From NCBI GenBank assembly GCA_050252755.1, contig JBFWKI010000014.1:4347-68346 (forward strand): a stretch of DNA of 64,000 nt, read 5' to 3'. The notes beneath the pieces were generated by a model that did not search any database, had not been told where the DNA came from, and saw only the letters and a list, made by a program, of their open reading frames with translations. The translations under genes and the position numbers were made by a program. Of this stretch, positions 14,203 to 50,697 are shown piece by piece. How positions within the stretch are numbered: position 1 is the first letter of the stretch; each line of letters opens with the position of its first letter. This DNA comes from Sphingobium sp. GTDB lineage: Bacteria > Pseudomonadota > Alphaproteobacteria > Sphingomonadales > Sphingomonadaceae.

Positions 14203-14236
14203 AACACATTATCGCTCTTAAGTGCGATTAACGCAC
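14203..14236 (+). promoter_or_regulatory. tandem PcaR/IclR-like boxes upstream of TonB receptor 1
   Basis: AACACATTATCGCTC (14203) and the palindromic GTGCGATTAACGCAC (14222), with a 19-bp start-to-start offset. Confidence 0.55.
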
Positions 14237-14258
14237 TATTTTGGAAGAGGATCAAGCC

Positions 14259-16457
14259 GTGTCTCTTTTTACGTCGAGTCTGAATCTCCCTGCATCCGTC
14301 CGCAACGCCGCCTCGCTCGCAGTGATCGGACTTTGCCTGGTCCAGCCCGCCTTCGCCCAGCAGGACGCGCAGCCTGCGGACGCCCCGGCCACGCAGGCGG
14401 CGGACGTCAACGAAATCAATGAAATCGTCGTCACCGCCCAAAAGCGCAGCGAACGCCTTCAGGATGTTCCCATCTCCATTTCGGCGGTAACGAACGAAAC
14501 GCTGGAAAAGCAGAGCATCTCGCAAGTCTCGCAGATTTCCATGTCGGTGCCCGCCATCCGCATCGACTTCAGCGGCAACACCGTGCAGCCGACCATTCGC
14601 GGCGTCGGCAGCGCCATCGCCGGCCCCGGCACCAATTCCAACATCCCGACCTATATCGACGGATATTATATCCCCAATCCGGTCGCGACCGATCTCAACC
14701 TCATCAACATCGAATCGCTCAGCGTGCTGAAGGGTCCGCAAGGGACGCTGTTCGGCCGCAACGCGACCGGCGGCGCGCTTCAGGTCACGACGCGCAAGCC
14801 GCAGCACGACACGACCGTGCTGGCGCGGATCGGCTATGCCCGCTTCTCGCACATCACAACGGGCGTCTATGGCTCGACCGGCCTTACCGACACGCTCGCG
14901 GTCGATCTTGCCGCCTCCTATGAAACCGGCGACGGCTTCAAGCGCAACATCGTCACCGGCGACAGCAATGTCGGCCGCTTCCGCAAATGGGCGGTGCGCG
15001 CCAAGGCGCTGTGGGAACCGGCGGACGGCGTCAGCTTCCTGGTCGCTTATGGTCACAGCTATAGCGACGATCCGTCCCCCAATATGGTCAACGCGCGCGA
15101 GGGCATGAGCGCCGGTGCGCTGATCCCCGGCACCGTCGTCGCGTCCGGGCGGCGCGACGTATCCAACACCCGGCCGAATTTCGACATATTGAAAACCGAT
15201 TCGATCACGCTGACCAGCAGCTTCGACCTCGGCTTCGCGGACCTGACCTCCTATACCGGCTATCGTGAGGAAAATGACTATCAGGGCTTCGACTATGATG
15301 CGTCGGCGGCCGAAATTCAGGCTGCGATCTGGACCATCCCGGAAAAGACCTTCACCCAGGAAATCAACCTGACCTCCAAGCCCGGCGGCCGGTTCAACTG
15401 GGTGCTCGGCGCATTCTACCTCTATAATTCGAGCGAATATCACTATAATCTCGCCGCGGGCGGCGCGGATTATTTCCGCCTGTTCGATTCCAGGAACAAG
15501 ACCAACTCCTACGCCGTGTTCGCGGACGGCACCTATGAGGTGATGGACAAGCTGTTCGTGACCGTCGGCGGCCGCTACAGCGTGGACAAGCCGGAAGTGG
15601 CGTTCGATCTTTATGCCGTGGACCCGGCCTTGTCGGACGCGGGCAAGAAGAAGTTCACCAACTTCTCGCCCCGCGCGGTCGTCCGCTATGAAATCACGCC
15701 GCGTTCCAGCGTCTATGCCTCCTACACCAAGGGGTATAAATCCGGCATCCTGCCCGCCTCTTCCTTCTCGACCATCGCGGTCGACCCGGAAAAGATCGAC
15801 GCCTTCGAAGTGGGCTTCAAGACGGCCAGCGGCCCGCTGCGTTTCAACCTCGCTTCCTTCTACTATAAATATAAGGACGTGCAGGTCGCATCCTTCTTCG
15901 GGCAGGGCGTATCGGTGATCCGCAACGCGGCGAGCGCCGAAATCTACGGCGTGGACGGCGAGCTGTCCTATGACGTGACGCCGGACCTCAACCTGTTCGC
16001 CAACGTCGCCTGGACCCATGCCGATTACGACAAATTCCCCAACGCGATCGGCTATCAGCAAGATCTGGATCCCACCAGCCCGAACTATTCGACGTTCCAG
16101 CCGGTCAATATCGACGCATCCGGCTATCAGGTGCTACGCTCGCCGCGTCTCGCCTTCAATGTCGGCGGCAATTACGGTTTCGATCTTGCCGGGGGACGGA
16201 TGGCGCTCAACGCCAATTATTTCCACACCAGCAAATTCTATTTCGATGCGGTGGAGCAATTCGGTCAGAAGGCCTATGGCCTGCTCAACCTGCGGGCGAC
16301 ATGGACCGACCCGACCGATCGTTTCGACCTGTCGGTGTTCGGCACCAACGTCACCGACACCAAATATATCACCCAGACGCTGCCCGACACGGTCGCCATT
16401 CGTCAGGCCTATGGCGAGCCTGCGGTAATCGGGGCCTCGATGACCTTCCGCTACTGA
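14259..16457 (+). CDS. TonB-dependent receptor
   Basis: GTG 14259 is preceded by GGAAGAGGA. Signal peptide ...LCLVQPAFA/QQ, plug motif EIVVTAQKRSERLQDVPISI, and a barrel ending ...GASMTFRY. The start could instead be the TTG at 14241. Confidence 0.95.
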   Translation: MSLFTSSLNLPASVRNAASLAVIGLCLVQPAFAQQDAQPADAPATQAADVNEINEIVVTAQKRSERLQDVPISISAVTNETLEKQSISQVSQISMSVPAIRIDFSGNTVQPTIRGVGSAIAGPGTNSNIPTYIDGYYIPNPVATDLNLINIESLSVLKGPQGTLFGRNATGGALQVTTRKPQHDTTVLARIGYARFSHITTGVYGSTGLTDTLAVDLAASYETGDGFKRNIVTGDSNVGRFRKWAVRAKALWEPADGVSFLVAYGHSYSDDPSPNMVNAREGMSAGALIPGTVVASGRRDVSNTRPNFDILKTDSITLTSSFDLGFADLTSYTGYREENDYQGFDYDASAAEIQAAIWTIPEKTFTQEINLTSKPGGRFNWVLGAFYLYNSSEYHYNLAAGGADYFRLFDSRNKTNSYAVFADGTYEVMDKLFVTVGGRYSVDKPEVAFDLYAVDPALSDAGKKKFTNFSPRAVVRYEITPRSSVYASYTKGYKSGILPASSFSTIAVDPEKIDAFEVGFKTASGPLRFNLASFYYKYKDVQVASFFGQGVSVIRNAASAEIYGVDGELSYDVTPDLNLFANVAWTHADYDKFPNAIGYQQDLDPTSPNYSTFQPVNIDASGYQVLRSPRLAFNVGGNYGFDLAGGRMALNANYFHTSKFYFDAVEQFGQKAYGLLNLRATWTDPTDRFDLSVFGTNVTDTKYITQTLPDTVAIRQAYGEPAVIGASMTFRY

Positions 16458-16479
16458 GCCGGAAAAACAGGAATAAGGA

Positions 16480-16511
16480 CCGGCCTCACCTTGGTGTGGG
16501 GCCGGTTTTTT
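16480..16511 (+). terminator. rho-independent terminator of receptor gene
   Basis: CCGGCCTCAC / GTGGGGCCGG stem (one G-U pair) followed by TTTTTT. Confidence 0.75.
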
Positions 16512-16568
16512 ATGTGCCGAACATATGGGTTCGCCAGCATTCCGACGCGCTGATGATGTGCCGAATCG

Positions 16569-16612
16569 AAAAAGGCGGCTTTCGCGAGCCAGAGCGCGAA
16601 AGCCGCCTTTTT
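16569..16612. terminator. bidirectional rho-independent terminator
   Basis: AAAAA-GGCGGCTTTCGCG-(8 nt)-CGCGAAAGCCGCC-TTTTT, a perfect 13-bp stem flanked by an A-run and a T-run, between convergent genes. Confidence 0.8.
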
Positions 16613-16669
16613 ATCTCATGGAACGGCTATAAGAGCCGCGTGGGGGGACGCCGGCCCCAGCGCCCCGTC

Positions 16670-19176
<2,507 letters not shown>

Positions 19177-19224
19177 ATTGTCCTCATTCTGAAAAAAATG
19201 ACCTTATCATATTTTGGTCAAAAA

Positions 19225-19258
19225 GTTCGATTATCGCCCTTGCGTTCTATTATCGCCA
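19225..19258 (+). promoter_or_regulatory. tandem PcaR/IclR-like boxes overlapping a putative promoter
   Basis: GTTCGATTATCGCCC (19225) and GTTCTATTATCGCCA (19244), offset 19 bp. The embedded TTCGAT-N16-TATTAT looks like -35/-10 hexamers about 55 nt upstream of ATG 19309. Confidence 0.6.
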
Positions 19259-19308
19259 CCATTAGCCATTATAGCGACATTGACAAGGGCCAAGAGAAGG
19301 AGAGTCGA

Positions 19309-20052
19309 ATGGGAGAATTACGCTCGGCAATTGTAACCGGGGGCGCCAGCGGCATCGGAAAGGCCTGCGTCGAGGGTCTGGCCGCGCAGGGCTGGGCCAT
19401 CACCCTTGCGGATCGCAACGAGGAAGGCGAAGCCATCGCCGCCGCCATCCGCGATGCGGGCGGCAAGGCGCAGTTCGTCGCCGTCGACGTCACCGATGAA
19501 CAGAGCGTGCGAGCGATGGTGGATCGCGCGACCGATGCCTATGGGCAATTGCACGGCGCGATCAATTGCGCGGGCATCGCCGGTTGCTCCAAGCCCATTC
19601 ATGAAATCGACGCGGCCGAATGGGATCGCGTTCACGCCATCAACCTGCGCGGCATGTTCTTCTGCCTGAAATATGAAATCGCGGCGATGTGGCCCCATAA
19701 GGTCGGGTCGGTCGTCGCCATGTCCTCGGCGGCGGCGATGAAGGGCCTGCCGTGGAGTTCCGACTATTGCGGGTCAAAGGCGGGCATCGACGGAATGGTA
19801 CGCGGCGCGGCGATGGATTGCGCAGAACAGAATATCCGCGTCAATGCGATCCTGCCCGGCGCGACGATGACGCCGCTGGCCATGGGATCGAGCAACGCCA
19901 ACCCCGCCCTCGCCAAGACGCGCACCCGCCCGATGGGCCGCATGGCCGATCCGTCGGAAATCGCATCGGCGGCGCTGTGGCTGCTGTCGGACGGGGCAAG
20001 CTTCACCACCGGCATTTCCATGCCCGTCGATGGCGGCATGGTCATCGCATGA
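19309..20052 (+). CDS. short-chain dehydrogenase/reductase (SDR)
   Basis: ATG is preceded by AAGGAGAG. AIVTGGASGIGKA and YCGSKAG motifs. The 18595-start ORF is an artefactual extension antisense to the ALDH gene. Confidence 0.9.
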   Translation: MGELRSAIVTGGASGIGKACVEGLAAQGWAITLADRNEEGEAIAAAIRDAGGKAQFVAVDVTDEQSVRAMVDRATDAYGQLHGAINCAGIAGCSKPIHEIDAAEWDRVHAINLRGMFFCLKYEIAAMWPHKVGSVVAMSSAAAMKGLPWSSDYCGSKAGIDGMVRGAAMDCAEQNIRVNAILPGATMTPLAMGSSNANPALAKTRTRPMGRMADPSEIASAALWLLSDGASFTTGISMPVDGGMVIA

Positions 20053-21449: not shown

Positions 21450-22559
21450 TCAAGCCTTTTGCGCGACCAACGCGCCGGTGTCTTCCGCGCCCTCGAAACG
21501 CAGGTACGCCGCCCTGTCCCGATGCCGCGCCGAACTGCCGAAAAGCTGCTGGCTGAGCTTTGCCCGTTTAAGGAACAGGTGGCAGGGATGTTCCCATGTG
21601 AACCCGATGCCGCCATGCAGTTGCACCGCGTCGCCGCAGAACGCCGCATAAATGTCGCAAGCATAGGCTTTCGCGGCCGATGCCACGGCGGAGGCATCGG
21701 CTGCTCCCGCCTCGCCCAGCGCTGCGGCATGCCGCGCCAGCGCGGTCGTCGCCTCGATCTTGACCTTCCAGTCCGCCGCCCGGTGCTTGAGCGCCTGAAA
21801 CGAACCGATGGGTCGCCCGAACTGCTCGCGTATCTTCAGATATTCCACGGTCATATCGAGCAGCACCGCCGCCCCGCCCACCGCGTCGCAGGCGAGGCCC
21901 AACGCGGCATGATCGGCAAGGACGTCCCAGTCGCGTTCATCCAGCAAGAGCGCCATTACGGGGTCCGCCGCGACATTATCGAGCGTTACCCGCCCCATGC
22001 TGCGGGTCAGGTCCACCAGCGGGCGCGGCTCCACGGATACGCCCGGCGTCGCGGGTTCGAGCAGGGCAAGCCCCATGCCCGCGGCATCGCGCACGGGGAC
22101 CAGCAGCAGCGTCGCCACATCGGCGAAAAGCATATGGTCGATCACGCCATTGATGCGCCCGTCGGGGCTGGCTTCCGCCATATTCCCATCGCCGGGCAGG
22201 CTGATCGCGGCGACCACCTCGCCCGCGGCGATCTTCGGCAGCCAGCGCGCCTGCATGGCCGCATCGCCATGGGCGGCGATCAGGCTCGCCGCGATCATGG
22301 TGGACAGCGCGGGCACCGAGGCAAGCTGCCGCCCCAATTCCTCATACAGCACCGCGAGATGGGACAGGCCGAGGCCAAGGCCGCCATGCTCCTCCGGTAT
22401 CGCCAGCCCCAGCCAGCCGAGCGCCGCCATCTCCCGCCACAGGTCACGGTCAAAGCCGCGCCCTTCCTCGCCGGGGATGTCGAAGCTGTCCCCGGCACGG
22501 TCAGTCAGCACATCGCGGATGGCCTCGCGCAGTTCGGCGGTATCGAATATCTCGCTCAT
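21450..22559 (-). CDS. acyl-CoA dehydrogenase family protein (likely partner of 22556-23512)
   Basis: Start set at ATG 22559 (MSEIFDTAELREAIRD...), which makes an ATGA overlap with the upstream gene. C-terminus ...LHGGIGFTWEHPCHLFLKRA. The 515-aa ORF extension is not supported. Confidence 0.9.
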   Translation of the reverse strand: MSEIFDTAELREAIRDVLTDRAGDSFDIPGEEGRGFDRDLWREMAALGWLGLAIPEEHGGLGLGLSHLAVLYEELGRQLASVPALSTMIAASLIAAHGDAAMQARWLPKIAAGEVVAAISLPGDGNMAEASPDGRINGVIDHMLFADVATLLLVPVRDAAGMGLALLEPATPGVSVEPRPLVDLTRSMGRVTLDNVAADPVMALLLDERDWDVLADHAALGLACDAVGGAAVLLDMTVEYLKIREQFGRPIGSFQALKHRAADWKVKIEATTALARHAAALGEAGAADASAVASAAKAYACDIYAAFCGDAVQLHGGIGFTWEHPCHLFLKRAKLSQQLFGSSARHRDRAAYLRFEGAEDTGALVAQKA

Positions 22560-23512
22560 TGCGCCACCGCCTCGTTTTCCGACTGTTCCACCCCGGCCCA
22601 GCGGTCCGCCGCAATGGCGAGCGCCGTACCATAAAGCCCCCCGGCTTCGGGCTGAAGCGCGCGGATGCGGTAGGTCCAGAAATGCAGCAGATGCTCGGTC
22701 GTCACGCCCATGCCGCCATGGAACTGGTGCAGATCGAACAGCAACGCCTGAATGCCCAGTTGCGCATGACAGGCGGCGATATCGGCATCGCTGGCCTGCC
22801 CGCTCCACGCCGCCCGCATCGCCAGATAATAGAGGCTTTTCGCCCAGCCATGGCGCTGCACCAGCCGATGCTGCACCGCCTGAAACGAAGCGACCGGCCG
22901 CCCGAACACATGGCGTTGCTTCACATAATCGAGGGTGAAGGCAATCGCCGCATCCGTCGCGCCGGCGATTTCCGCTGCCAGCCCGACCCGCCACCATTGC
23001 CGCATCGCCGCAGCCGCGCCCTCGAACCGGGCCGCGCCGGAAAGGTCGGGCTGCGCGGTGAAGCGGCCATAGGGATAGGCGTAGATGCTTTCGACCGGCT
23101 CGACCCCGGCGGCATCGACGGGCAGCACCGCGACATCATCCCCCAGATCGACGAGCAGCGTGCCCGCGATCGGCAGGTTGCGGATCGCCTTATCCAGCCC
23201 GGCCCGCGTCGTCAGCGCGACCGGCCCGGCGAACCGCTCGCCCGGCAGGGTGAGCGGGGCCACCAGACCCGCGCCGATGGTGTCGATCGCCGCAACGCCC
23301 TTCGCCACCTCGAAGGTGACGAGCGCCGCCTCCAGCGGACCGATCTCCCGCCCGGCATCAAGAAAGCCATTATCGGCGAGCAATCCCTGCAACCCGGCAT
23401 CGTGCCACGCAAAGCTGAACCGTTCGTCCTGCGGCAGGTCCGCATGGTCGGTCATGATGGCCTGAAGCGCGGATACAAGCGCCTGCTGATCGTCTGTAAG
23501 CTGGAAATCCAT
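22556..23512 (-). CDS. acyl-CoA dehydrogenase family protein, short form (candidate beta-type subunit)
   Basis: Start at ATG 23512 (MDFQLTDDQQALV...), 318 aa. ...FGRPVASFQAVQHRL and FHGGMGVTTEHLLHF motifs. Shorter than canonical ACADs. Confidence 0.85.
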   Translation of the reverse strand: MDFQLTDDQQALVSALQAIMTDHADLPQDERFSFAWHDAGLQGLLADNGFLDAGREIGPLEAALVTFEVAKGVAAIDTIGAGLVAPLTLPGERFAGPVALTTRAGLDKAIRNLPIAGTLLVDLGDDVAVLPVDAAGVEPVESIYAYPYGRFTAQPDLSGAARFEGAAAAMRQWWRVGLAAEIAGATDAAIAFTLDYVKQRHVFGRPVASFQAVQHRLVQRHGWAKSLYYLAMRAAWSGQASDADIAACHAQLGIQALLFDLHQFHGGMGVTTEHLLHFWTYRIRALQPEAGGLYGTALAIAADRWAGVEQSENEAVAQ

Positions 23513-23513
23513 A

Positions 23514-24656
23514 TCAGCCCCTCGGCAGCCCGAGGCCGCGCCGGGCGACCAGATCGAGCTGAATTTCATTGGTGCCCCCGGTTATCCCGGCCGGCACGTT
23601 GATGCGGTAATAATCTTCGAGCAGAACATCGCCCCCGGCAATGCAATCGGGCACGAACTCGATCAGGAAGTTCATCATCTCCGACACGGCGTCGAGCGCG
23701 ACGATGCGCGCCAGATTGGCGTCGGTGGTCGGCGGCATGCGCTTCACCCGCTGATCGACGACTAGATAGGTGAGCATCCGCGCCGCCTCGAACTTCGCGA
23801 CGATCATCCCCGCGCGCGAACGCGCGATGGGGTCATCATCCCAGCGCCCTTCCCGCTTCAGTTGCGCCACCGCCTGATCGAGCGCGTCGAGGCCGGTATG
23901 ATAGCGCGCCACGCCCACCCGTTCATAGGCGAGCGCATGGGTGACGATCTCCCACGCCTGCCCTTCCTCGCCGACGCGGCTGGCGGCTGGCACGCGGACA
24001 TCGGTGAAGAACACTTCATTGAGATGGCCGGATTTTATGATGCCGGGGAAGCTGGTGACGGAAACGCCGGGCGTATCCATCGGCAGCAGGAAGATCGACA
24101 CGTCCTTGCGCGCGGGGCCGGTGCGGGCGAGCAGGAAGCACCAGTCGGCGGTGCGCGCATAGCTCGTCCAGATTTTCGATCCGTTGATGATATAATCATC
24201 GCCGTCGCGCTCCGCCCGCGTTTTCAGCGCGGCCAGATCGGTGCCCGCATTGGGTTCGGAAAAGCCCTGGCACCAGATCACCCGCCCGCTGGAGATGCCC
24301 TTGAGGTGCTGCTCCTTCTGTTCGGGCGTGCCATAGCGCATCAGCGTCGGCCCGATCCAGTTGACGTTCATATATTGCGGCCCGCGCGGTTCGCCCGCGC
24401 CCTTCATCTCTTCGCCAAGGACGAAATGATCCCAGTCCGCGCTGTTGCTGCCGCCATATTCGACCGGCCAGTGCGGCACCAGCAGCCCGCGCTCCGCCAG
24501 CCCGGCGCAAAATTCGCGGGAAAAGGCGACCTGCAAATCGGACGCATAGCTTTCGGGGACATATTTTTCGTCCCAGTCATCAGGCAAAAGCTCGTCGAGC
24601 GCCGCGCGCACGCGGGTCCGATAATTCTCCTGATCGGGTGCCCAGGCAAATTCCAT
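23514..24656 (-). CDS. acyl-CoA dehydrogenase
   Basis: Start at ATG 24656 (MEFAWAPDQENY...). WCQGFSEPNAGTDLAAL, and a C-terminal GGTNEIQLDLVA with the usual catalytic Glu position. Confidence 0.9.
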   Translation of the reverse strand: MEFAWAPDQENYRTRVRAALDELLPDDWDEKYVPESYASDLQVAFSREFCAGLAERGLLVPHWPVEYGGSNSADWDHFVLGEEMKGAGEPRGPQYMNVNWIGPTLMRYGTPEQKEQHLKGISSGRVIWCQGFSEPNAGTDLAALKTRAERDGDDYIINGSKIWTSYARTADWCFLLARTGPARKDVSIFLLPMDTPGVSVTSFPGIIKSGHLNEVFFTDVRVPAASRVGEEGQAWEIVTHALAYERVGVARYHTGLDALDQAVAQLKREGRWDDDPIARSRAGMIVAKFEAARMLTYLVVDQRVKRMPPTTDANLARIVALDAVSEMMNFLIEFVPDCIAGGDVLLEDYYRINVPAGITGGTNEIQLDLVARRGLGLPRG

Positions 24657-24675
24657 CGTTGTTGTTCTTTCCCTT

Positions 24676-25884
24676 TTACGCTGTCTTGGCCTGCGGCTCA
24701 CGCGGAAGCTGCAAGCCGCGCTCGGCGATGATGGTACGCTGAATTTCGGAACTGCCGCCAGAGATGGTCCAGGCCCAGGAATAGAGGAAATCCTGCATCC
24801 AATAGCCCGTCTCATTGGCGCCGCCCATCAGCACGGCCTGTAGATATTGCGCGTCGATCCCGCCGATCGCGACGCCCAGTTCGGTAAAATCGCGCAGCAG
24901 ATCGCTGTAATACAGCTTGATGATCGACGGCTCCACCCCGACCGCATCGCCTTTCAGCACGCTGGTAAGCTGATTGTTGACGAGCAGGCGCAGCGCCTCG
25001 ATACGGCTATATATATCGACCAGACGGCGGCGTATCTCGTCATCCTCATAGGGTGTCCGGCCTCCCTTGGGCGCCCGCGCATCGGCCAGCAGCAGCTTGA
25101 AGCCCTCCCGCATCCGCTCTGCCAGTTCGAGGACGGACAGGCCGCGTTCCGACGACAGCGTCGATTGCGCCACCGCCCAGCCGCCATGTTCCGGGCCGAT
25201 CAGATTTTCGGCGGGAATGACAACATCATCAAGGAACAATTCGTTGAAATGCGACGCGCCGGTCATCTGCTTGATCGGGCGCAGGCTGACGCCCGACGTT
25301 TCCAGATCGAGGATGAAATAGGAAATGCCCTTGGTCTTGGAGACGTTCGGGTCCGTGCGCGCGAGCAGCAGGCAATAGCGGGCATGATGGGCGTTGGACG
25401 ACCATGTCTTCTGGCCGTTCACCACATAATGATCGCCGCGCCGCTCGGCCCGCGTGCGCAGGCTCGCAAGGTCCGACCCGGCATCAGGCTCGGAAAAGCC
25501 CTGACACCATATCTCGTCCCCCGCCAGCACGGCGGGCAGGTGGCGGCGGCGCTGTTCCTCGGTGCCCCAGTGCAGCAGCGTGCCGGGCACATGATGCAAC
25601 GCGATGAAATAGAGAATCAGGCGCGGCGCGCCAGCACGGGCGATTTCCTCATAAAGGACGATCTGTTCCGCAAAGGAAAAGCCGCTGCCGCCCCATTCGC
25701 GGGGCCAGTGCGGCGCGCCATAGCCGCCCTCCATCAGCTTGCGGAACCACCATTTCTGAAAGGCGACATGATCCTCCTCGGCAGCGCCGAGCATCTTCTG
25801 CTGCCAGTCGGACGGGAGGTTTGCGGCAAGCCATGCGCGCACTTCGGCGCGAAACGGCTCCAGACGCTTCAGTTCCTCAAGCAT
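24676..25884 (-). CDS. acyl-CoA dehydrogenase
   Basis: Start at ATG 25884 (MLEELKRLEPFRAE...). WCQGFSEPDAGSDLASL and GGSSEIQRTIIAERGL. A paralog of 23514-24656. Confidence 0.9.
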   Translation of the reverse strand: MLEELKRLEPFRAEVRAWLAANLPSDWQQKMLGAAEEDHVAFQKWWFRKLMEGGYGAPHWPREWGGSGFSFAEQIVLYEEIARAGAPRLILYFIALHHVPGTLLHWGTEEQRRRHLPAVLAGDEIWCQGFSEPDAGSDLASLRTRAERRGDHYVVNGQKTWSSNAHHARYCLLLARTDPNVSKTKGISYFILDLETSGVSLRPIKQMTGASHFNELFLDDVVIPAENLIGPEHGGWAVAQSTLSSERGLSVLELAERMREGFKLLLADARAPKGGRTPYEDDEIRRRLVDIYSRIEALRLLVNNQLTSVLKGDAVGVEPSIIKLYYSDLLRDFTELGVAIGGIDAQYLQAVLMGGANETGYWMQDFLYSWAWTISGGSSEIQRTIIAERGLQLPREPQAKTA

Positions 25885-26068
25885 CTCAGGCGCGGTCCTT
25901 CCCCACAGCGCGAACGGGCAAGGTTCGCAAATCGGACCGCAGCCCCCCAGTAACGGCTCTTGCCATGGCCTTTTCCGACCCCCGTTTCGTTCGATTAACG
26001 CTCCAATGTTCCATATAGAAACGATGGGCGTTTTGGCGTCGGCTGTCAACATGATAGGCGAGAATTGA

Positions 26069-26102
26069 CGATGAAAATGTGCGTTTATCGTCCATTTGCG
26101 CT
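26069..26102 (+). promoter_or_regulatory. weak candidate PcaR/IclR-like box pair
   Basis: GTGCGTTTATCGTCC (26069) matches 12/15 of the palindromic consensus. The +19 position reads GCGCTTTATAAGAAC, a poor match that contains TATAAG. About 43 nt upstream of ATG 26145. Confidence 0.3.
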
Positions 26103-26144
26103 TTATAAGAACATTGTATAGGGTGAGAAAGAGAGGGAAAGAAC

Positions 26145-27628: not shown

Positions 27629-28453
27629 TTACGGGAGGATTTCCGCAAGCTGCGCCTGCATCTCCAGCATGGCGGGCAGGATTTCCGTTTCCACCCGCTC
27701 CGGGGAGCTGCGCGAAACATGCAGGCCGACCGTCACCGCCGCGACGGTATTGCCCGCGAAATTGCGGATCGGCACCGCGATGGAGCGGGAGTTCGTCTCC
27801 AATTCCTGATCGATGAACGCATAGCCCTGATCGCGCACGCGATCTATCTCCGCCATCAGCACCTTGACCGTGGTCAGCGTCCGGTCGGTCAGGCGCTGGC
27901 GGTCACTCGCCTCGATGACCTGCTTGGCCTGTTCGGGCGGCAGCGCAGCCAGCAAAACGCGGCCCAGCGAGGTGCAATAGGCGGGCAGACGGCTACCCGC
28001 ATGCAGCCCCGCGCCGACGATGCGGTGATGCGATGCGCGGGCGATATAGACCACCTCCGTCCCGTCGAGCACAGCCGCCGAACAGCTTTCCCGCAACTGA
28101 TCGGCAAGCTGATCCAGCGATGGCTTGATAAGGCGCGGCAACGAGGCGGCGAGATAGGAATGGCCCAGCCGCAGGATGCGCGGGGTCAGTTCGAAATAGC
28201 GGTCGTCCGTGGTCGCGTAGCGCATTTCGACCAGCGTCAGCAGGCACCGCCGCGCCGATGCGCGATCCAGCCCGCTCAACCGCGCCACCTCCGCGATGGT
28301 CAGGCGATTGCGACCCTGACCGAAGGCCTCGATCACCGACAAACCTTTGGCAAATCCGCCCATTCGATCGACGTCGCGCAACACTCGCCCCGTTCCCTTG
28401 GACGCCGCCTCGACCGGTTGTTCCCTGCTCGCTTCACTCACTCCCTGCTCCAT
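27629..28453 (-). CDS. IclR-family transcriptional regulator (PcaR/PcaU-like)
   Basis: N-terminal wHTH ...KGLSVIEAFGQGRNRLTIAEVARLSGLDRASARRCLLTL, and a C-terminal IclR effector domain (...YAFIDQELE...RSIAVPIRN). Confidence 0.9.
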   Translation of the reverse strand: MEQGVSEASREQPVEAASKGTGRVLRDVDRMGGFAKGLSVIEAFGQGRNRLTIAEVARLSGLDRASARRCLLTLVEMRYATTDDRYFELTPRILRLGHSYLAASLPRLIKPSLDQLADQLRESCSAAVLDGTEVVYIARASHHRIVGAGLHAGSRLPAYCTSLGRVLLAALPPEQAKQVIEASDRQRLTDRTLTTVKVLMAEIDRVRDQGYAFIDQELETNSRSIAVPIRNFAGNTVAAVTVGLHVSRSSPERVETEILPAMLEMQAQLAEILP

Positions 28454-28477: not shown

Positions 28478-28492
28478 GTGCGATTATTGCAC
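28478..28492. promoter_or_regulatory. near-perfect 15-bp palindrome upstream of the IclR gene (candidate autoregulatory operator)
   Basis: In GTGCGATTATTGCAC, 6 of 7 arm positions pair. The site lies 25 bp upstream of the IclR start codon and belongs to the same box family as 14222-14236. Confidence 0.6.
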
Positions 28493-33432: not shown

Positions 33433-33466
33433 GTGCGTTAATCGCCCTACTGTTCACATATCGGAC
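33433..33466 (+). promoter_or_regulatory. tandem PcaR/IclR-like boxes in divergent NMO / fadB-like promoter region
   Basis: GTGCGTTAATCGCCC (33433) and GTTCACATATCGGAC (33452), offset 19 bp. The reverse complement of 33432-33448 matches 14221-14237 at 16 of 17 positions. Confidence 0.6.
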
Positions 33467-33528
33467 TTTTGCCTTGTCCTGCCCCCGGTCGTCAAGTAGG
33501 CAGGCATATAAATGAAGGGAGAGCGCCA

Positions 33529-35073: not shown

Positions 35074-35075
35074 GC

Positions 35076-38386: not shown

Positions 38387-38407
38387 TTGCCCGCACTCCT
38401 TTGCTTA

Positions 38408-38443
38408 TGTCCGGCTTGCTTGTGCCCGGCTTGCTTGTGTCCA
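38408..38443. repeat. about 2.4 tandem copies of a 15-bp unit in the thiolase-like/DUF35 intergenic spacer
   Basis: TGTCCGGCTTGCTTG (38408-38422), TGCCCGGCTTGCTTG (38423-37), then TGTCCA. Confidence 0.7.
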
Positions 38444-38489
38444 GCCCCGGCTCCGGCTGTTTCTGGCCCGATGATTCCTGCCGCGCGCA

Positions 38490-38968: not shown

Positions 38969-39002
38969 GTGCGAATATGTAACATACGTTCGATCTACGA
39001 TA
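38969..39002 (+). promoter_or_regulatory. tandem PcaR/IclR-like boxes
   Basis: GTGCGAATATGTAAC (38969) and GTTCGATCTACGATA (38988), offset 19 bp, 45 bp upstream of the DUF35 start on the opposite strand. Confidence 0.45.
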
Positions 39003-39067
39003 TTGAACCGAATTTGACAATCCCGATTTATGCGCGCGCGTCCAGCCTTGACAGAGGCGGTGAGGAA

Positions 39068-39115
39068 GTTGATTGTTCGTATATCGCTATTATGAGCGAT
39101 ATACGAACAATCAAC
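39068..39115. promoter_or_regulatory. perfect 48-bp palindrome (21-bp arms, 6-bp centre)
   Basis: GTTGATTGTTCGTATATCGCT (39068-39088), ATTATG, AGCGATATACGAACAATCAAC (39095-39115). The arms are exact reverse complements. Confidence 0.8.
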
Positions 39116-40484: not shown

Positions 40485-40727
40485 TCTGCCGAATGATCTT
40501 GACGAGCGCCGATCCTTAGCAGAATATTGCACGAATGTACGATAAATGACCATTGGTGGATCAAGGCATGGACAGGCATATTCGGCTGTTCGCGGCGAAG
40601 CGCTGATCCCGCCTCGCCTGCGCTCCGTCTTGCCTGCCCCGCCTTGCCTGTCCTTGTCTCACCCGCCACGCCTCGCCCGTCTGATCTCGCGAGTCGCCGG
40701 TTTCGCTAATTTGAAGGAGCAATATCG

Positions 40728-44087: not shown

Positions 44088-44894
44088 TCAGCTTCCCTTG
44101 AATTCAGGCTGGCGCTTTTCGAGGAAAGCCCGCGCGCCTTCGGCATGATCCTCTGTAAAGAGCGTCAGCTGGTCATAGGCGAGCGAGGTTTCGAAGGCCC
44201 CGGCGGTCATCTGCTTGAGCAGCAGGTTGACCGACATCTTGCCATAGGAAATGGCGAGCGGCGCCCCGGCGGCGAGGCGTTTCGCATAGCCGTCCACGAA
44301 ATCATCCAGTTCCGCATCGGGCACGCAATAGTTGATGAGGCCGATCTGCGCGGCCTTGGAAGCCTCGATCGGTTCGCCCAGCATCAGATATTCCTTGGCG
44401 CGGTGGAAACCGAGCAGCAGCGGGAAAAAGGCGACGCCGCCGTCGCCCGGCGCAATGCCCATGCGGACATGCGAATCGCAGAAGCGCGCGCCTTCCGCCG
44501 CAATCACCATATCGCAGGCGAGCGCGATGTTGACGCCCACGCCATAGGCCGGGCCGCGCACCTTGGCGATGATCGGCTTTTCGCTGTCCATCATGCCCCA
44601 GAACAGCCGGCGAGCGCTGCGCGTGGGCGGACGGCCCTTGCGCCCGCCCTGATTTTCCTTGTCCTGCACGGACAGGTCGGTCCCGGCGCAAAAGGCGTCG
44701 CCCTCGCCCGTCAGGATGACGACGCGGATATCGTCATCCATGTCGATATCATCCCATATGCGTTCGATTTCGCGATGCATCGGGCGAGACACCGCATTTT
44801 TGCGGCGCGGATTGTTGAGCGTGAGCGTGGCGACGCCGTCCTCGCGCTTCTCTATCCTGATCCACTCATAGCGGCTGGGGTCGATGGCGGGCAA
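44088..44894 (-). CDS. enoyl-CoA hydratase/isomerase family protein
   Basis: Crotonase motifs [14 protein letters not shown] and [19 protein letters not shown]. Confidence 0.9.
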
Positions 44895-44927
44895 AGCTGG
44901 TCCTTTCCTGATAAAGGGTCGGCGCGG

Positions 44928-46112: not shown

Positions 46113-46156
46113 CATGATCCTCCTCATGCGGCGAATGGAGTGGAACCGGCCTATCG

Positions 46157-46190
46157 GTTCGATATTCGCTCATACGGTTTATATTCGCAC
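46157..46190 (+). promoter_or_regulatory. tandem PcaR/IclR-like boxes upstream of the P450-hydratase-ferredoxin operon
   Basis: GTTCGATATTCGCTC (46157) and GGTTTATATTCGCAC (46176), offset 19 bp, 45 bp from the P450 start. Written on the + strand, but the gene is on the - strand. Confidence 0.5.
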
Positions 46191-46241
46191 ATTAAGAACA
46201 GCATCGCAATCTTGTCAAGCAGGATGCCCAAGGGGGAACGG

Positions 46242-47009
46242 CTATTGCGCGGTCAGCCCCCCGTCCACCACCAGTTCGGCGCCCGTCACATAGCTGGCGT
46301 CGTCGGAAAGCAGGAAGGCGATGGCCGCGCCCAGTTCATCCGCCACCGCCGTGCGGCCGAGCGGAACCGCCGCCGCAATCGCCGCGGATGCACCGCTGGC
46401 GTCGCTGCGGGCGACCTGCTGAATGTCGGTTTCCACCACGCCGGGATGCACGGAATTGACGCGAATCCCATCCCGCCCACATTCGAGCGCGAGGGATTTC
46501 GTCATCAGGCGCACCCCGCCCTTGCTCGCCGCATAGGCAGCCGTGCGCGGCATGCCGACCAGCCCCGCCACCGAAGAGACATTGACGATAGCGCCGCCGC
46601 CCTTTTCGCGGAAATGGCCGATCAGCAGACGGCAGCCAAGATAGGTGCTCGTCAGGTTCACCTCGATCTGGCGATGCCACATCGCCGGGTCGAGGTCTTC
46701 GATCACCGCCAGCACAGCGATGCCCGCATTGTTGACCAGCCCGTGCACGGGGCCGAAACGGTCGCTCGCCTGCGCCAGCACCCGCTCCCACCCGGCCGGC
46801 TGCGTCACATCATGGACGATGCCCAGCGCGGCGCCGCCCAGCGCCTCTATCTCCGCCACCCGTTGGGCGAGCGCATCGCCATCAAGGTCGGTAAGGACCA
46901 CCTGCCCGCCTTCGCGCGCGATCCGCCGCGCGGCGGCAAAGCCGATCCCCCTGACGGAAGCCGCGCCGGTGATGATGACCGTCTTGCCTTCAAACCGCAT
47001 GATGTGCAT
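46242..47009 (-). CDS. short-chain dehydrogenase/reductase (SDR)
   Basis: VIITGAASVRGIGFAAA, NNAG and YAASKGG motifs. Confidence 0.9.
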   Translation of the reverse strand: MHIMRFEGKTVIITGAASVRGIGFAAARRIAREGGQVVLTDLDGDALAQRVAEIEALGGAALGIVHDVTQPAGWERVLAQASDRFGPVHGLVNNAGIAVLAVIEDLDPAMWHRQIEVNLTSTYLGCRLLIGHFREKGGGAIVNVSSVAGLVGMPRTAAYAASKGGVRLMTKSLALECGRDGIRVNSVHPGVVETDIQQVARSDASGASAAIAAAVPLGRTAVADELGAAIAFLLSDDASYVTGAELVVDGGLTAQ

Positions 47010-47027
47010 TCCTTCCGTTCAGGCCGT

Positions 47028-48218
47028 TCAGGATAATTGCCGCGCAAGGGCGCCGTGATGGAGGTTCCAGAGGACGGGATCAGGCAGCGGGCGCAGGACC
47101 GATCGATCGACGGCATCGATGCCGGGCCGGTCGAGATTGGCGACCGTCGCGGTCATGCTACGCCGGAAAAGCGTGAGGATACGCTCCACGCCCGGTTGCC
47201 CACCGGCCGCCAGACCCCAGAGATAGGCCCGGCCGATCAGCACCGCCCGCGCGCCCAGCGCCCGCGCGCGAACGATATCCGCGCCGCGCGTGACGCCGCC
47301 GTCCATCAGCACTTCGCCGCGATCGCCCACCGCATCGGCAATTTCGGGCAGGACGGAAAGGGTCGCGGGCACGCCGTCGAGAACCTTGCCGCCATGGTTG
47401 GAAACGATCACGCCATCAAGACCCATATCGATGGCCCGCTTCGCATCGGCTGCGCGCATCACGCCCTTCAGCAGCATCGGTCCGTTCCAGCGCCGCCTGA
47501 TCCAGCCGAGATCATCCCAACTCGCGGGCGTCGCCGCCAGCAGACGCCCCGCATCCTGCACGCGCAGCAGCGACCCGTCCGCCCGGCGCGGCGCATTGGG
47601 CGCAGGCATGGCCAGCCCCCCACGCAGCAGCGACCAGAGCCAGCGCGGGCGGCTCCAGGCCTCCGGCGCGAAGGCCAGCGCCGCGCGCAGGCTCATCGTT
47701 TCGGGCAAAGGGCGCGCAATCCGGTCCACGGGCGATATGCCCGCTATGTCGGCGGTGACGACCAGAACGCGGCAGCCTGCGGCGCGGGCCATGTCAATGC
47801 ACCAGCCAGCCCCTTCCCGCCCGTTCACCATATAAAGCTGGAACCATGTGTCGGGGTTCGCCGCGACAATCTCCTCCGCCGGGGTGCCGCACCATGTGCT
47901 GATCGCGATCGGCACGCCCGCCGCCGCCGCCGCGCGCGCCGCGCCCAGTTCTCCATCGGCATGGACGATGCGAACAAAGCCCGTGGGCGCGATTGCCAGC
48001 GGCATGGCGATGCGCTGGCCCAGCACCATGGTCGAGCAATCCGGCGCGGTGGCCGTCGGGCAGGCGGGCGCGTCGAACAGCACCCGCCCAAAGGCGGCGG
48101 CATTGGCCGTGACGGTGGTTTCAGCCTCCTTGCCGCCCTCGATATAATGATAGACCGCCGCAGGCAGTTTTCGCCGGGCGATGGCCCGCGCCTCATCGAT
48201 ACTGCCGAACGACCTCAT
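47028..48218 (-). CDS. FMN-dependent alpha-hydroxy acid dehydrogenase/oxidase (LldD/glycolate oxidase family)
   Basis: Start at ATG 48218 (MRSFGSIDEARAIARRKLPAAVYHYIEGG...). The VSNHGGKVLD motif and a C-terminal ...GRAYLWGLAAGG. Confidence 0.9.
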   Translation of the reverse strand: MRSFGSIDEARAIARRKLPAAVYHYIEGGKEAETTVTANAAAFGRVLFDAPACPTATAPDCSTMVLGQRIAMPLAIAPTGFVRIVHADGELGAARAAAAAGVPIAISTWCGTPAEEIVAANPDTWFQLYMVNGREGAGWCIDMARAAGCRVLVVTADIAGISPVDRIARPLPETMSLRAALAFAPEAWSRPRWLWSLLRGGLAMPAPNAPRRADGSLLRVQDAGRLLAATPASWDDLGWIRRRWNGPMLLKGVMRAADAKRAIDMGLDGVIVSNHGGKVLDGVPATLSVLPEIADAVGDRGEVLMDGGVTRGADIVRARALGARAVLIGRAYLWGLAAGGQPGVERILTLFRRSMTATVANLDRPGIDAVDRSVLRPLPDPVLWNLHHGALARQLS

Positions 48219-48350
48219 CAAAGCATCATCCCCGGCCCGACATGCGCCTGTCCGGCCTTTTCTTTCCCGCACATATTCTTTCGCACATGAAAAGGGAGGG
48301 AGGCGCGGACCGGCGCAGGCCGATGCCCCCCTCCTGTCTCCATGTCCGGA

Positions 48351-50570
48351 TCAGTACCGAACAGTCAGCGATGCGCCGATCATCGCCGGGTCGCCCCATG
48401 TCTGGCGGCTGGAATAGCTGTCCACCTGATTATACAGACGATATTTGGTGTCGGTCACATTGGTGCCGAAGATCGAAATATCGAAATGCTCGGTCGGGTC
48501 GGTCCAGGTCGCGCGCAAGTTCAGGATCGAATAATTGCCCTGCGGCAACTGCTTCACCGCGTCGAAGTAGAATTTTGACGTGTGATACAGGCTGGCGTTG
48601 AGCATGAGCCGCCCGCCCGCGACATCCATCCCGTAGGTCGCGCCGATATTGCCCGCAAAACGCGGGGTGCGCGCCACCGGGAAGCCCGTCGCGTCGATGC
48701 CGACGTTCAGGAAGCGTCCATAGGTCGGGCTGGCGGGGTCCAGATCCTGCTGAAGCCCGATCGCATCGGGGAAGTCCTTATATTCGGCATGGGTATAGGC
48801 CGCGCCGATATCGATGGTGAGGTCCGGCGTGACGGTGAACGAAAGATCGCCGTCAATGCCGTAAATCTCCGCCTTGGCCGCGTTGCGCGTCATGCTGGCG
48901 CCGTTGGCGCCAAACGCCGTCACCTGAATATCGCGGTAATTATAATAGAAACCCGCGATGTTCAGCCGCACCATGCGATTGGCGACCTTATAGCCCACTT
49001 CATAGGCGTCGATCTTTTCCGGGTCCACCGGCGTCGTCGAGAAAGCGGAGCCGGGCAGCGTGCCGGACTTATAGCCCTGAGTAAACGAGGCATAGACGTT
49101 GGACCGGGGCGTCAGTTCATACCGCACGACCGCGCGCGGCGAGAAGTTCTTGAACTCCGCATCCCCCTCGCCCGCGAAGTCGGACGGGATGAGGTGAAAC
49201 TTCACCGACGGCTTGTTGATCGAATAACGGCCACCCACGGTCACGAACAGCTTGTCCGCCACTTCATAGGTGCCATCGGCAAAGACCGCGTAGGATTCCA
49301 GCTTGTTCTTCGTGTCGAACAGCCGGTTGAACGGCGCGCCATAGCCATCGTCGGCGCCCGGCGTGTTGGTGTAGAAATGATAGACGTTGGTCGCGTTCAT
49401 GTAGAACGCGCCCAGCACCCAGTTCAGGCGACCGCCGCCCTTCGAGGTGAGGTTGAGTTCCTGCGTGAAGGTCTTGTCGGGGATATGCGAGATCGCGGCA
49501 TAGATATTCGCAGGCGTCGTGTCATAATCCAGCCCTTGACGAATTTCGTCCGTCCGATAGCCGGTATAGGATGTCAAATCAGCAAACCCCAGATCGAACC
49601 GGCTGGTCAGCGTAATCGAATCGCTGTTCACGCGGAAAAAACGGGGGCCAAGACCGGAATAATCGCCGCGATCGTTGACGATCATCGTATCCGGCGCGGT
49701 GATGCCGATGGTGGCGCCATCGCGGGCGCTGGTCAGCACGGCGCGCGGATTATTCTCATAACGGTGCGAATAAGCGAGCGTGAAGCTGGCGAAATCGCTC
49801 GGCTCCCAAAGCACCTTGCTGCGGACCTGCCAGCGGCGGAAGCGGCTCTCATCCTGCTTGCCGGTCGCCACATTCTCTATGAAGCCGTCGCCCCGCTCGA
49901 ACGAGGCGGCCACATCGACCGCCAGCGTGTCGGTAAGGCCGGTCGAACCGTAAAAGGCCGTGGTGATATGGTCATAAGAGCCATAGCCGAGCTTGGCGAT
50001 CATCGTCGGCGTATATTGCGGCTCGCGCGTGTTGAGCTGAATCGCGCCGCCCGTCGCGTTGAAGCCGAACAATGTCCCCTGCGGCCCCTTCAGCACATTG
50101 ACGCTCGACATGCTGATCAGGTCGAAGTCCGACGCGCCGGGGCTGGGGATGTAATAGCCGTCGATATAGACGGGAATGTTGGAATAGAGGCCCGGCCCGG
50201 CAACAAGGCTGCCAATGCCGCGAATCGACGGCTGGACGTTGGTGCCCGCATAGTTGATGCGCAGCGCCGGAACCGATTGCGGCAGTTGCGACACCTGGGT
50301 GAGGCTTTTGCGCTCGATATCGGCGGATGACAACGCCTGAATGGAAATGGGAACGTCCTGAAGGCGCTCACTGCGCTTCTGGGCCGTCACGATGATTTCG
50401 CCGGTGTCGCCAGCGGGCGAAGCGCCAGCGCCCGCCATCGCGGCGGCGTCCTGCGCCGGGGCGGCGGCGTCCTGCACGCCTTCCTGCGCGGCCACCGCAA
50501 GGGGGAACGCAGCCGCGCCAGTCAGCAGCGCAAGCGCCAGCGCCCGGACGGGTCCGGTATGAGTGAACAT
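48351..50570 (-). CDS. TonB-dependent receptor (paralog of 14259-16457)
   Basis: Signal peptide ...AAFPLAVAAQEG, plug EIIVTAQKRSERLQDVPISIQ, and a barrel ending ...GASLTVRY. Many blocks are shared with receptor 1 (LGFADLTSYTGYR, DKLFVTVGGRYS, FKNFSPRAVVRYE). Confidence 0.95.
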   Translation of the reverse strand: MFTHTGPVRALALALLTGAAAFPLAVAAQEGVQDAAAPAQDAAAMAGAGASPAGDTGEIIVTAQKRSERLQDVPISIQALSSADIERKSLTQVSQLPQSVPALRINYAGTNVQPSIRGIGSLVAGPGLYSNIPVYIDGYYIPSPGASDFDLISMSSVNVLKGPQGTLFGFNATGGAIQLNTREPQYTPTMIAKLGYGSYDHITTAFYGSTGLTDTLAVDVAASFERGDGFIENVATGKQDESRFRRWQVRSKVLWEPSDFASFTLAYSHRYENNPRAVLTSARDGATIGITAPDTMIVNDRGDYSGLGPRFFRVNSDSITLTSRFDLGFADLTSYTGYRTDEIRQGLDYDTTPANIYAAISHIPDKTFTQELNLTSKGGGRLNWVLGAFYMNATNVYHFYTNTPGADDGYGAPFNRLFDTKNKLESYAVFADGTYEVADKLFVTVGGRYSINKPSVKFHLIPSDFAGEGDAEFKNFSPRAVVRYELTPRSNVYASFTQGYKSGTLPGSAFSTTPVDPEKIDAYEVGYKVANRMVRLNIAGFYYNYRDIQVTAFGANGASMTRNAAKAEIYGIDGDLSFTVTPDLTIDIGAAYTHAEYKDFPDAIGLQQDLDPASPTYGRFLNVGIDATGFPVARTPRFAGNIGATYGMDVAGGRLMLNASLYHTSKFYFDAVKQLPQGNYSILNLRATWTDPTEHFDISIFGTNVTDTKYRLYNQVDSYSSRQTWGDPAMIGASLTVRY

Positions 50571-50587
50571 GATATCCTCCCAAGATT

Positions 50588-50621
50588 GTTCATTAATCGC
50601 ACAACTGTGCCTTTATTGAAT
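50588..50621 (+). promoter_or_regulatory. tandem PcaR/IclR-like boxes proximal to TonB receptor 2
   Basis: GTTCATTAATCGCAC (50588) and GTGCCTTTATTGAAT (50607), offset 19 bp. On the gene strand the first reads GTGCGATTAATGAAC. Confidence 0.55.
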
Positions 50622-50663
50622 AGCGCCACCTTCGCCGCCGGTCAAACATCTTTCCAGAGATTT

Positions 50664-50697
50664 GTTTGATTATCGCCCGAACGTTCTATATTCATTC
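50664..50697 (+). promoter_or_regulatory. tandem PcaR/IclR-like boxes overlapping a putative MFS promoter
   Basis: GTTTGATTATCGCCC (50664, 14/15 identical to 19225) and GTTCTATATTCATTC (50683), offset 19 bp. Embedded TTTGAT-N16-TATATT. Confidence 0.6.

Follow-up and report, generated by a model that had tools for sequence, protein, structure and literature searches.

Among regulators of the IclR family, the closest described counterpart of the system treated here is PcaR of Pseudomonas putida. The published PcaR operator box is GTTCGATAATCGCAC (PMC12455658), and on the pcaIJ operator the protein is arranged as a dimer of dimers across the −35 and −10 elements, while at its own promoter it acts as an autorepressor at positions −20 to +4 (bioRxiv 10.1101/2023.07.27.550818). 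The motif GTNCG-N5-6-CGNAC is common to PcaR, PcaU, PobR, CatR, GenR, HmgR, MhpR, and others (PMC13273656), and three-box sites have been described for some regulators of this group. A sphingomonad contig (Sphingobium sp., JBFWKI010000014.1, positions 4,347 to 68,346; these 64,000 nucleotides are referred to below as the window) encodes an IclR regulator of the same subfamily at 27629–28453 and carries, upstream of the catabolic and transport genes around it, a 15-bp quasi-palindromic box that recurs in tandem pairs. Judged from the sequence, and with a probability of roughly 0.8, these boxes are the operators of this regulator, which would control the island as a whole.

The recurrence of the box is supported by several counts. 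A first-pass annotation of this DNA had picked out 15 box strings, and every one of them (15/15) lies exactly where it was placed. When the window is searched with the degenerate consensus GTKCGATWATCGCMC, allowing at most three mismatches, 42 matches are found; dinucleotide shuffling yields 15.2 ± 4.6, and in none of 100 shuffled sequences is a count of 42 attained. De novo motif discovery by expectation maximization (EM) was carried out on 30 intergenic regions with 20-bp margins, using 500 random seeds, a local-GC background, and a fixed site prior. The window has a GC content of 64% and its intergenic DNA 40–70%; EM with a global background collapsed onto poly-C/poly-G, and ranking of seeds by mismatch count was dominated by GC-rich low-complexity words, so that both were replaced. 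The top EM motif is the palindrome GTGCGATAATCGCAC, with a log-likelihood ratio (LLR) of 157 vs. maxima of 69–89 in 12 dinucleotide-shuffled sets. A symmetrized matrix derived from this motif (scores given in bits) finds 18 sites of at least 12 bits in the whole window, 14 of them within the 4.2 kb of intergenic DNA, and all ten sites of at least 16 bits are intergenic (14222, 19225, 25989, 26079, 28478, 33433, 39094, 46157, 50588, and 50664). The expectation from 500 dinucleotide shuffles of the intergenic DNA is 0.14 sites of at least 12 bits and 0.008 of at least 16 bits. The approximately 60 kb of coding DNA contains four sites of at least 12 bits and none of at least 16 bits, and none of the four has a partner 19 bp to either side. 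Strong sites are confined to intergenic DNA, where they are far more frequent than in shuffled sequence, and the box observation is confirmed as real and stronger than first described.

The spacing of the boxes is equally restricted. For the ten strong anchors (at least 16 bits) every offset from 8 to 45 bp was scored on both sides; nine of ten have a partner of 3 bits or more at exactly ±19 bp, and in eight of ten this partner reaches 4 bits (99th percentile of intergenic scores, 0.5 bits). Each other offset in this range gives a partner to at most one anchor, and 500 intergenic shuffles produced no phased pair. The exact 19-bp offset noted in the first-pass annotation is thereby upheld. The only strong anchor lacking a partner is 28478, directly upstream of the IclR gene. 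In total the window holds 11 pairs plus this single box. The seven pairs originally listed are all present, and four further ones had been overlooked: 25989/26008, 39075/39094, 40518/40537, and 26079/26098, whose strong first member (16.7 bits) had been taken for a weak copy at 26069. Box 14188, a third one beside the 14203/14222 pair, was likewise missing from that list. The pairs are not copies of one ancestral promoter: mean identity in their flanks is 25.6%, vs. 57% within the boxes, and BLAST matches are limited to physically overlapping fragments. Because the flanks are unrelated, recent duplication of promoter-gene units, the alternative raised together with the original observation, is rejected.

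The boxes, the regulator gene, and the genes they precede are as follows, with enoyl-CoA hydratase abbreviated ECH, acyl-CoA dehydrogenase ACAD, and aldehyde dehydrogenase ALDH.

14188..14236, plus strand: three boxes, 14188 (11.6 bits), 14203 (3.1 bits), and 14222 (20.7 bits), upstream of TonB-dependent receptor 1 (GTG 14259); TTGACA beside them at 14178–14183
19225..19258: pair 19225 (20.5 bits) and 19244 (13.1 bits), between the divergent ALDH-NMO unit (start 19176, minus strand) and an SDR gene (19309, plus strand)
25989..26022, minus strand: pair 25989 (18.5 bits, gene-proximal) and 26008 (6.7 bits), upstream of the operon of four ACAD genes and a Rieske gene (ATG 25884, minus strand); TTGACA beside it at 26049–26044
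26079..26112, plus strand: pair 26079 (16.7 bits) and 26098 (4.7 bits), upstream of the SnoaL-SDR unit (26145, plus strand)
27629..28453, minus strand: gene for the IclR regulator of the PcaR/PcaU/PobR subfamily, 274 amino acids, from Pfam, TIGR02431, and PDB matches
28478..28492: single box GTGCGATTATTGCAC, a near-perfect palindrome (19.1 bits), 24 nt upstream of the iclR ATG, no partner at ±19 bp
33433..33466: pair 33433 (19.7 bits) and 33452 (7.6 bits), between the NMO-ECH-ALDH-GMC unit (ATG 33413, minus strand) and the fadB-like/metallophosphoesterase unit (ATG 33529, plus strand); CTTGACG beside it at 33496–33490 (minus strand)
38969..39002, minus strand: pair 38969 (12.1 bits, proximal) and 38988 (6.9 bits), upstream of the DUF35/Ltp2-like/AMP-ligase operon (ATG 38924, minus strand)
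39068..39115, plus strand: pair 39075 (12.4 bits) and 39094 (16.5 bits), upstream of the 4HBT thioesterase-SDR unit (ATG 39127, plus strand); CTTGACA beside it at 39047–39053
40518..40551, plus strand: weaker pair 40518 (3.9 bits) and 40537 (13.1 bits), upstream of the SDR-thiolase unit (40728, plus strand)
46157..46190, minus strand: pair 46157 (17.8 bits, proximal) and 46176 (11.5 bits), upstream of the P450-ECH-ferredoxin operon (ATG 46127, minus strand); CTTGACA beside it at 46219–46213 (minus strand)
50588..50621, minus strand: pair 50588 (17.2 bits, proximal) and 50607 (8.2 bits), upstream of the TonB-dependent receptor 2-FMN_dh-SDR unit (ATG 50570, minus strand); TTGACC beside it at 50645–50640
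50664..50697, plus strand: pair 50664 (17.0 bits) and 50683 (7.9 bits), upstream of the MFS transporter gene (ATG about 50765, plus strand), carrying TTTGAT-N16-TATATT

Start codons of the NMO (33413), fadB-like (33529), MFS (about 50765), and ACAD (25884) genes were corrected by homology, and with these corrections every pair lies 17–104 nt upstream of a start codon, the distance being 176 nt for the weak 40518 pair. The thioesterase-SDR promoter stands apart, since 39068–39115 forms a perfect 48-bp palindrome (21-nt arms matching at 100%, 6-nt loop), far more symmetric than the other pairs. At TonB-dependent receptor 1 box 14188 abuts box 14203, and 14188/14203/14222 may together form a three-box operator of the type predicted in certain IclR subgroups. 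The regulon originally proposed, comprising both TonB-dependent receptors, the MFS gene, the P450 operon, the fadB-like gene, the SDR at 19309, and the DUF35/thiolase-like operon, is supported by boxes at the respective promoters. Its extent had been underestimated, and the four-ACAD-Rieske, SnoaL-SDR, NMO-ECH-ALDH-GMC, ALDH-NMO, thioesterase-SDR, and probably SDR-thiolase units are to be added. A single 9-bit box, GTTTGATTATGTCTC, lies at 11395–11409 between a second P450 gene (10146–11366, minus strand) and the first of two TetR genes, and may be a weak outlier of the regulon.

The arrangement of the pairs is that of the pcaIJ operator. The P. putida pcaIJ promoter (Table S2 of PMC12455658) contains TTGCGATTATCGGCC and GTTCGATAATCGCAC separated by GTTT. 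The matrix derived from the window detects in it a weaker box at position 36 (14.0 bits) and, exactly 19 bp further downstream, a strong one at position 55 (21.5 bits), the order seen at most window promoters. The 19-bp offset is therefore the canonical geometry of a PcaR operator, and as geometry the two-box architecture, 19 bp from start to start, is found in the window, in related loci, and at pcaIJ alike. The window boxes also conform to the GTNCG-N5-CGNAC operator consensus of the subfamily. The statement in the first-pass annotation that PcaR/PcaU-type regulators bind 15-bp boxes overlapping the −35 and −10 elements agrees with the published PcaR operator (PMC12455658; bioRxiv 10.1101/2023.07.27.550818).

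The regulator encoded at 27629–28453 belongs to the same group. It comprises an HTH_IclR domain (PF09339, E = 1.5e-14) and an IclR_C domain (PF01614, E = 9.8e-38), and its TIGR02431 score of 311.2 bits exceeds the cut-off of 284.75, placing it in the subfamily; the next family, BhcR, gives 109 bits vs. 350. A PDB search matches 2ia2 (E = 8e-61) and P. putida PcaR (8eju, E = 5.5e-60); the alignment with PcaR spans the full length of the protein, and the recognition helix is nearly identical (RASARRCLLTL in the window protein, RAAVRRCLHTL in PcaR). Its own predicted promoter, TATACA-17-AATAAT, is overlapped by box 28478 at the −10 element (AATAAT, 28488–28483), and this box is the only conserved block in a five-species alignment of DNA upstream of iclR. 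By sequence, operator type, and operator geometry the protein is a bona fide member of the PcaR/PcaU/PobR subfamily. In function it does not correspond to PcaR, since pca genes are absent from its predicted targets; these are instead genes for TonB-dependent receptors, MFS, P450, ACAD, ECH, Ltp2-like/DUF35, GMC, ALDH, NMO, and SDR proteins.

The association between regulator and box extends beyond this genome. Ten loci encoding IclR orthologs with 65–84% identity were collected from Sphingomonas, Novosphingobium, metagenome contigs, two Steroidobacter sources (a metagenome-assembled genome, MAG, and a metagenome contig), and a Hydrogenophilaceae MAG, and gene content was compared in the eight whose genes are called (L003–L010). 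The ortholog sits in these eight among the same kinds of catabolic genes, the context in L006 being largely different. Five of them (L003, L004, L007, L008, and L010) share modules with the window, namely the NMO-ECH-ALDH-GMC-IclR block or variants of it and the fadB-like/metallophosphoesterase genes, and where their contigs are long enough DUF35-Ltp2-ligase, P450-ECH, FMN_dh, TonB-dependent receptor, and MFS genes are also common. The four-ACAD block adjoins the ortholog in L005 and L009. The window itself matches a protein from a Sphingobium MAG with 100% identity. A single box is present 20–75 nt upstream of iclR in seven of the ten loci, and 19-bp pairs occur at the orthologous NMO/fadB, P450, MFS, DUF35, and ALDH promoters; the DUF35 pair (38969/38988) has an orthologous pair in L004 and L010, and the MFS pair (50664/50683) is conserved in L001, L003, and L008. 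In alignments of orthologous promoters the boxes stand out as conserved blocks while the remainder diverges. A pooled offset test on the ten loci, whose DNA was unused for training, found a ±19-bp partner for 18 of 34 anchors, with other offsets giving 0–2. Boxes, 19-bp pairing, and the lone box in front of iclR are thus kept across genera, as the comparison with orthologous loci suggested in the first-pass annotation has borne out.

Two promoter designs can be recognized. The first is marked by (C)TTGAC(A/G), which 17 of 31 pairs, including 6 of the 11 window pairs, have 24–31 nt upstream of their weak box and invariably on the side of that box; it is also invariant in alignments of the P450 and NMO promoters. 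The alphaproteobacterial −35 consensus is CTTGAC. Should TTGAC be the −35 element, the −10 element would lie immediately next to the weak box, and the pair would extend from about −1 to +33, which is the geometry of a repressor. In the second design, at the SDR-19309, MFS, and SnoaL promoters, there is no TTGAC, the order is strong box, weak box, gene, and −35- and −10-like hexamers fall inside the boxes as at pcaIJ. The overlay of TTCGAT/TTTGAT-N16-TATTAT/TATATT reported for the 19225 and 50664 pairs is present as described; as a general statement, boxes lying over −35 and −10 elements apply to a minority of promoters, most others having (C)TTGAC upstream, which would put the pair at or after the transcription start. 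A generic sigma-70 scan predicted few promoters, fewer than in shuffles for one half of the island, and was useful only for iclR, NMO, and a promoter at 40499–40528 (TTGACG-18-AATATT), the −10 element of which lies inside box 40518.

A mechanism consistent with these features can be proposed. Each 15-bp quasi-palindrome (GTKCG-ATWAT-CGMAC, a form of GTNCG-N5-CGNAC) would be bound by one dimer, and a strong and a weak box with starts 19 bp apart, and hence a 4-bp spacer, would accommodate a dimer of dimers that binds cooperatively. The eleven pairs would govern the promoters of approximately 13 transcription units between 14.2 and 50.8 kb: those of the two TonB-dependent receptors, MFS, P450-ECH-ferredoxin, four-ACAD-Rieske, DUF35/Ltp2-like/CoA-ligase, NMO-ECH-ALDH-GMC, fadB-like, thioesterase, SDR, and thiolase genes. 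At the typical promoter, running in the order (C)TTGAC, about 22–24 nt, weak box, 4 nt, strong box, 17–104 nt, and start codon, the pair most likely extends over the transcription start and the early transcribed region, where it would bring about repression. The single box over the −10 element of the iclR promoter would mediate autorepression, as in PcaR. An effector related to the pathway might weaken tetramer formation, free the weak box, and lift repression. Repression relieved by an effector is somewhat favored as the mode of control, activation or dual control being its main rival.

Several observations weigh against this account in whole or in part. PcaR itself activates pcaIJ in its native host together with β-ketoadipate. 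No consistent −10 hexamer is found at 16–18 nt from the conserved TTGAC, and with −10 elements so poorly defined both the promoter geometry and the choice between repression and activation are uncertain. The residues of PcaR that contact its ligand, succinate, are Y151, T177, S240, N257, and S259; in an alignment to PcaR the window protein keeps Y151, T177, and S240 and has T in place of N257 and G in place of S259. Since N257 and S259 are replaced, the effector is probably neither β-ketoadipate nor succinate, and the altered pocket hints at a different, possibly larger one. Among the related loci, the Hydrogenophilaceae locus L005 (IclR approximately 67% identical) has few boxes, and the Steroidobacter metagenome contig L006 (1–20816) has no box of at least 10 bits in 20 kb; its ortholog (67% identity), situated among GFO/IDH and amine oxidase genes, may have drifted in specificity or may be a paralog. 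The link between this IclR and the box is therefore strong but not universal. The scanning matrix was trained on the same intergenic DNA that it was used to score, a circularity reduced by the results on the pcaIJ operator, which is independent of the window, and on the related loci. Lastly, the window covers 64 kb of the genome, and a second PcaR-type paralog with the same specificity could lie elsewhere.

The alternative that shares most with the account above keeps the regulator and its operators and makes the protein an effector-dependent activator, as PcaR is at pcaIJ, with the promoter hexamers inside the boxes: the −35 element would occupy positions 1–6 of the distal box and the −10 element positions 5–10 of the proximal box, with a 17-nt spacer. 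Positions 5–10 of the proximal box do resemble a −10 element at every pair (GATAAT, TATTAT, GATTAA, GAATAT, etc.), the 17–50 nt from proximal box to start codon fit short leaders, and the geometry is identical to that of pcaIJ, where the −35 TTGCGA and −10 GATAAT fall in the two boxes; the −10 elements linked to TTGAC are, in addition, weak. Against this model stand the conserved (C)TTGAC upstream of the weak box and the poor in-box −35 hexamers (GTGCGA, GTCCGA, ATTCAA). In addition, PcaR represses the same type of operator in E. coli, and genetic evidence from a Ralstonia strain shows a PcaR homolog to repress. Activation is accordingly regarded as possible and the less likely mode.

Other candidates concern the identity of the binding protein. 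The near identity of the box to that of P. putida PcaR, the sharing of GTNCG-N5-CGNAC throughout the subfamily, and the limited view of the genome all leave room for a PcaR-type paralog encoded elsewhere, e.g., a genuine β-ketoadipate regulator that cross-regulates the island; this is improbable given that boxes co-occur with the IclR ortholog in 8 of 10 loci from three bacterial orders, that a single box of the autoregulatory type directly precedes iclR in seven of them, and that no pca genes were found in the window. The TetR pair (11464–12779) or MarR (52287–52775) of the window, whose families likewise recognize short palindromes and whose genes lie at the island margins, are very improbable binders: the motif matches the IclR group-1 consensus, and different inverted repeats (14056–14102 and 52809–52873) adjoin their own genes. 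They were rejected on the ground that L003, L004, L007, L008, and L010 carry pairs with no TetR or MarR gene within 10 kb. An origin of the boxes in chance, in AT-rich intergenic composition, or in recent duplication of promoter-gene units might be entertained because the box center is AT-rich and −10-like and intergenic GC, at 40–55%, lies below the 64% of the window. Dinucleotide shuffles, with 0.14 sites of at least 12 bits and no phased pairs vs. 14 and 13 observed, the shuffled LLR maximum of 89 vs. 157, the unrelated flanks, and conservation across genera led to its rejection, and its probability is negligible. Operators of the PcaR-subfamily IclR of the window remain the best explanation of the boxes.

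The island served by these promoters spans about 12.9 to 52.2 kb of the window and was annotated with Pfam and NCBIfam profiles; no pca gene was recognized anywhere in the window. For uptake the island has two TonB-dependent receptors and an MFS transporter. Among oxygenases and oxidoreductases it encodes two Rieske alpha-type oxygenases, the P450-ECH-ferredoxin operon, an FMN-dependent dehydrogenase, and a GMC oxidoreductase, together with two aldehyde dehydrogenases, two NMO-family proteins, and SnoaL-like and SDR proteins. Genes of CoA-dependent metabolism include several ECHs, the fadB-like gene, an AMP-ligase, a thioesterase, a thiolase, and a thiolase-like gene followed by DUF35. Four ACAD genes lie in a row at 21450–25884, of which 22556–23569 matches only the C-terminal ACAD domain; this row suggests two heteromeric pairs, as used for bulky or steroid-type acyl-CoAs. 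The only specific pointer to a substrate comes from the thiolase-like protein: in the PDB it matches best 6ok1 (“Lipid-transfer protein,” E = 1.9e-58), the Ltp2-ChsH2(DUF35) aldolase of steroid side chains. The P450 lies at equal distance from P450cin, MycG, CYP125, and CYP153, the Rieske proteins are closest to stachydrine/carnitine-type monooxygenases with no KshA among the matches, and the amidases of the Sphingobium Chol11 bile-salt side-chain cluster were not found in the window. A PLSDB search with the central 10 kb gave only short gene-level matches. In the gap between the DUF35 stop codon and the Ltp2-like start, approximately three direct copies of a unit of about 15 nt, GCTTGCTTGTGYCCG, were spotted by eye at 38405–38447.

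Besides the IclR gene (27629–28453), the regulators encoded in the window are two tandem TetR proteins (11464–12165 and 12162–12779) and a MarR protein (52287–52775, minus strand). The TetR proteins score 40 bits against the KstR cut-off of 280 and do not qualify as KstR equivalogs. An inverted repeat at 14056–14102 (20-nt arms, 90% complementary, 7-nt loop, CTTGCTATATTACATGTTAC / GTATTATGTAATATAGCAAG) lies 15 bp from the start of a Rieske oxygenase gene (14041); it does not resemble the IclR box in sequence and may be the operator that belongs to one of these TetR genes. An imperfect inverted repeat at 52809–52873 (31-nt arms, 74%), between the MarR gene and a GNAT acetyltransferase gene (53004, plus strand), probably serves as the MarR operator and marks where the IclR regulon ends on the right.

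The operator map unites approximately 34 genes in approximately 13 transcription units on both strands as one predicted regulon, and in this way delimits the pathway; uptake, through the two TonB-dependent receptors and MFS, and catabolism would be co-regulated, and the IclR protein becomes a candidate sensor for effector screening. The geometry of PcaR operators, with 15-bp boxes, 19-bp phasing, and a single autoregulatory box, is kept exactly on re-use for a non-aromatic pathway in distant lineages. A broader, tentative interpretation, given somewhat less than even odds, is that a PcaR-subfamily regulator was recruited from the control of aromatic acids to serve as master switch of a conserved catabolic island of approximately 37 kb, with a tripartite promoter, which would consist of CTTGAC, weak box, and strong box, and with a new effector. 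The island in question encodes P450/ferredoxin, GMC, ALDH, CoA ligase, two ACAD pairs, the Ltp2-DUF35 aldolase-like pair, TonB receptors, and MFS, and is found in sphingomonad genomes, metagenome contigs, and MAGs labelled Steroidobacter and Hydrogenophilaceae. If this interpretation is true, the regulon map and a biosensor built on it offer a direct handle on a steroid-, terpenoid-, or lipid-like substrate. In the papers examined on sphingomonad steroid and bile-salt degradation, no IclR regulator was found described for clusters of this kind, and among them the steroid papers on Chol11 and tardaugens do not contain the term IclR. The novelty lies in the context, i.e., approximately 13 units that include outer- and inner-membrane uptake genes, a CoA-dependent island, and conservation across several lineages; the principle itself is textbook IclR biology, and the surprise for a specialist is modest. 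The result is a solid but fairly ordinary regulon prediction.

Set beside the known systems, the window regulator resembles P. putida PcaR in its TIGR02431 subfamily, in the 15-bp box GTTCGATAATCGCAC, in the use of two boxes with a 4-bp spacer of which the upstream one is weaker, and in the single box at the −10 element of the regulator's own promoter. It differs in its targets, approximately 13 units of a CoA-dependent P450/ACAD/Ltp2-DUF35-type island with TonB receptors rather than pca genes, in the number of operators (eleven pairs, where PcaR has one or few), and in that most pairs lie downstream of a separate (C)TTGAC instead of forming the −35 and −10 elements. With PcaU and PobR of Acinetobacter baylyi, CatR, GenR, HmgR, MhpR, and TphR it shares the motif class and multi-box operators, whereas the PcaU/PobR group controls aromatic-acid pathways, usually via one divergent promoter. 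A dimer of dimers on adjacent sites overlapping the promoter or transcription start, and an effector that shifts the dimer-tetramer balance, as proposed here, would liken it to TtgV, E. coli IclR, and BlcR, although the box sequences and spacings of these regulators differ and the proteins are distant (E = 1e-14 to 1e-16). KstR and KstR2 of the actinobacterial steroid regulons provide an analogy only, in that one local repressor acts through many operators over a large catabolic island; unlike the window IclR they are TetR-family proteins with a different motif. PheR of Sphingobium sp. SHPJ-2 is a sphingomonad IclR repressor, linked by the title of its paper to both uptake and catabolism of phenanthrene, with a 44-bp footprint across the transcription start (−21 to +23), but its core motif is GCAACG and it controls a single operon.

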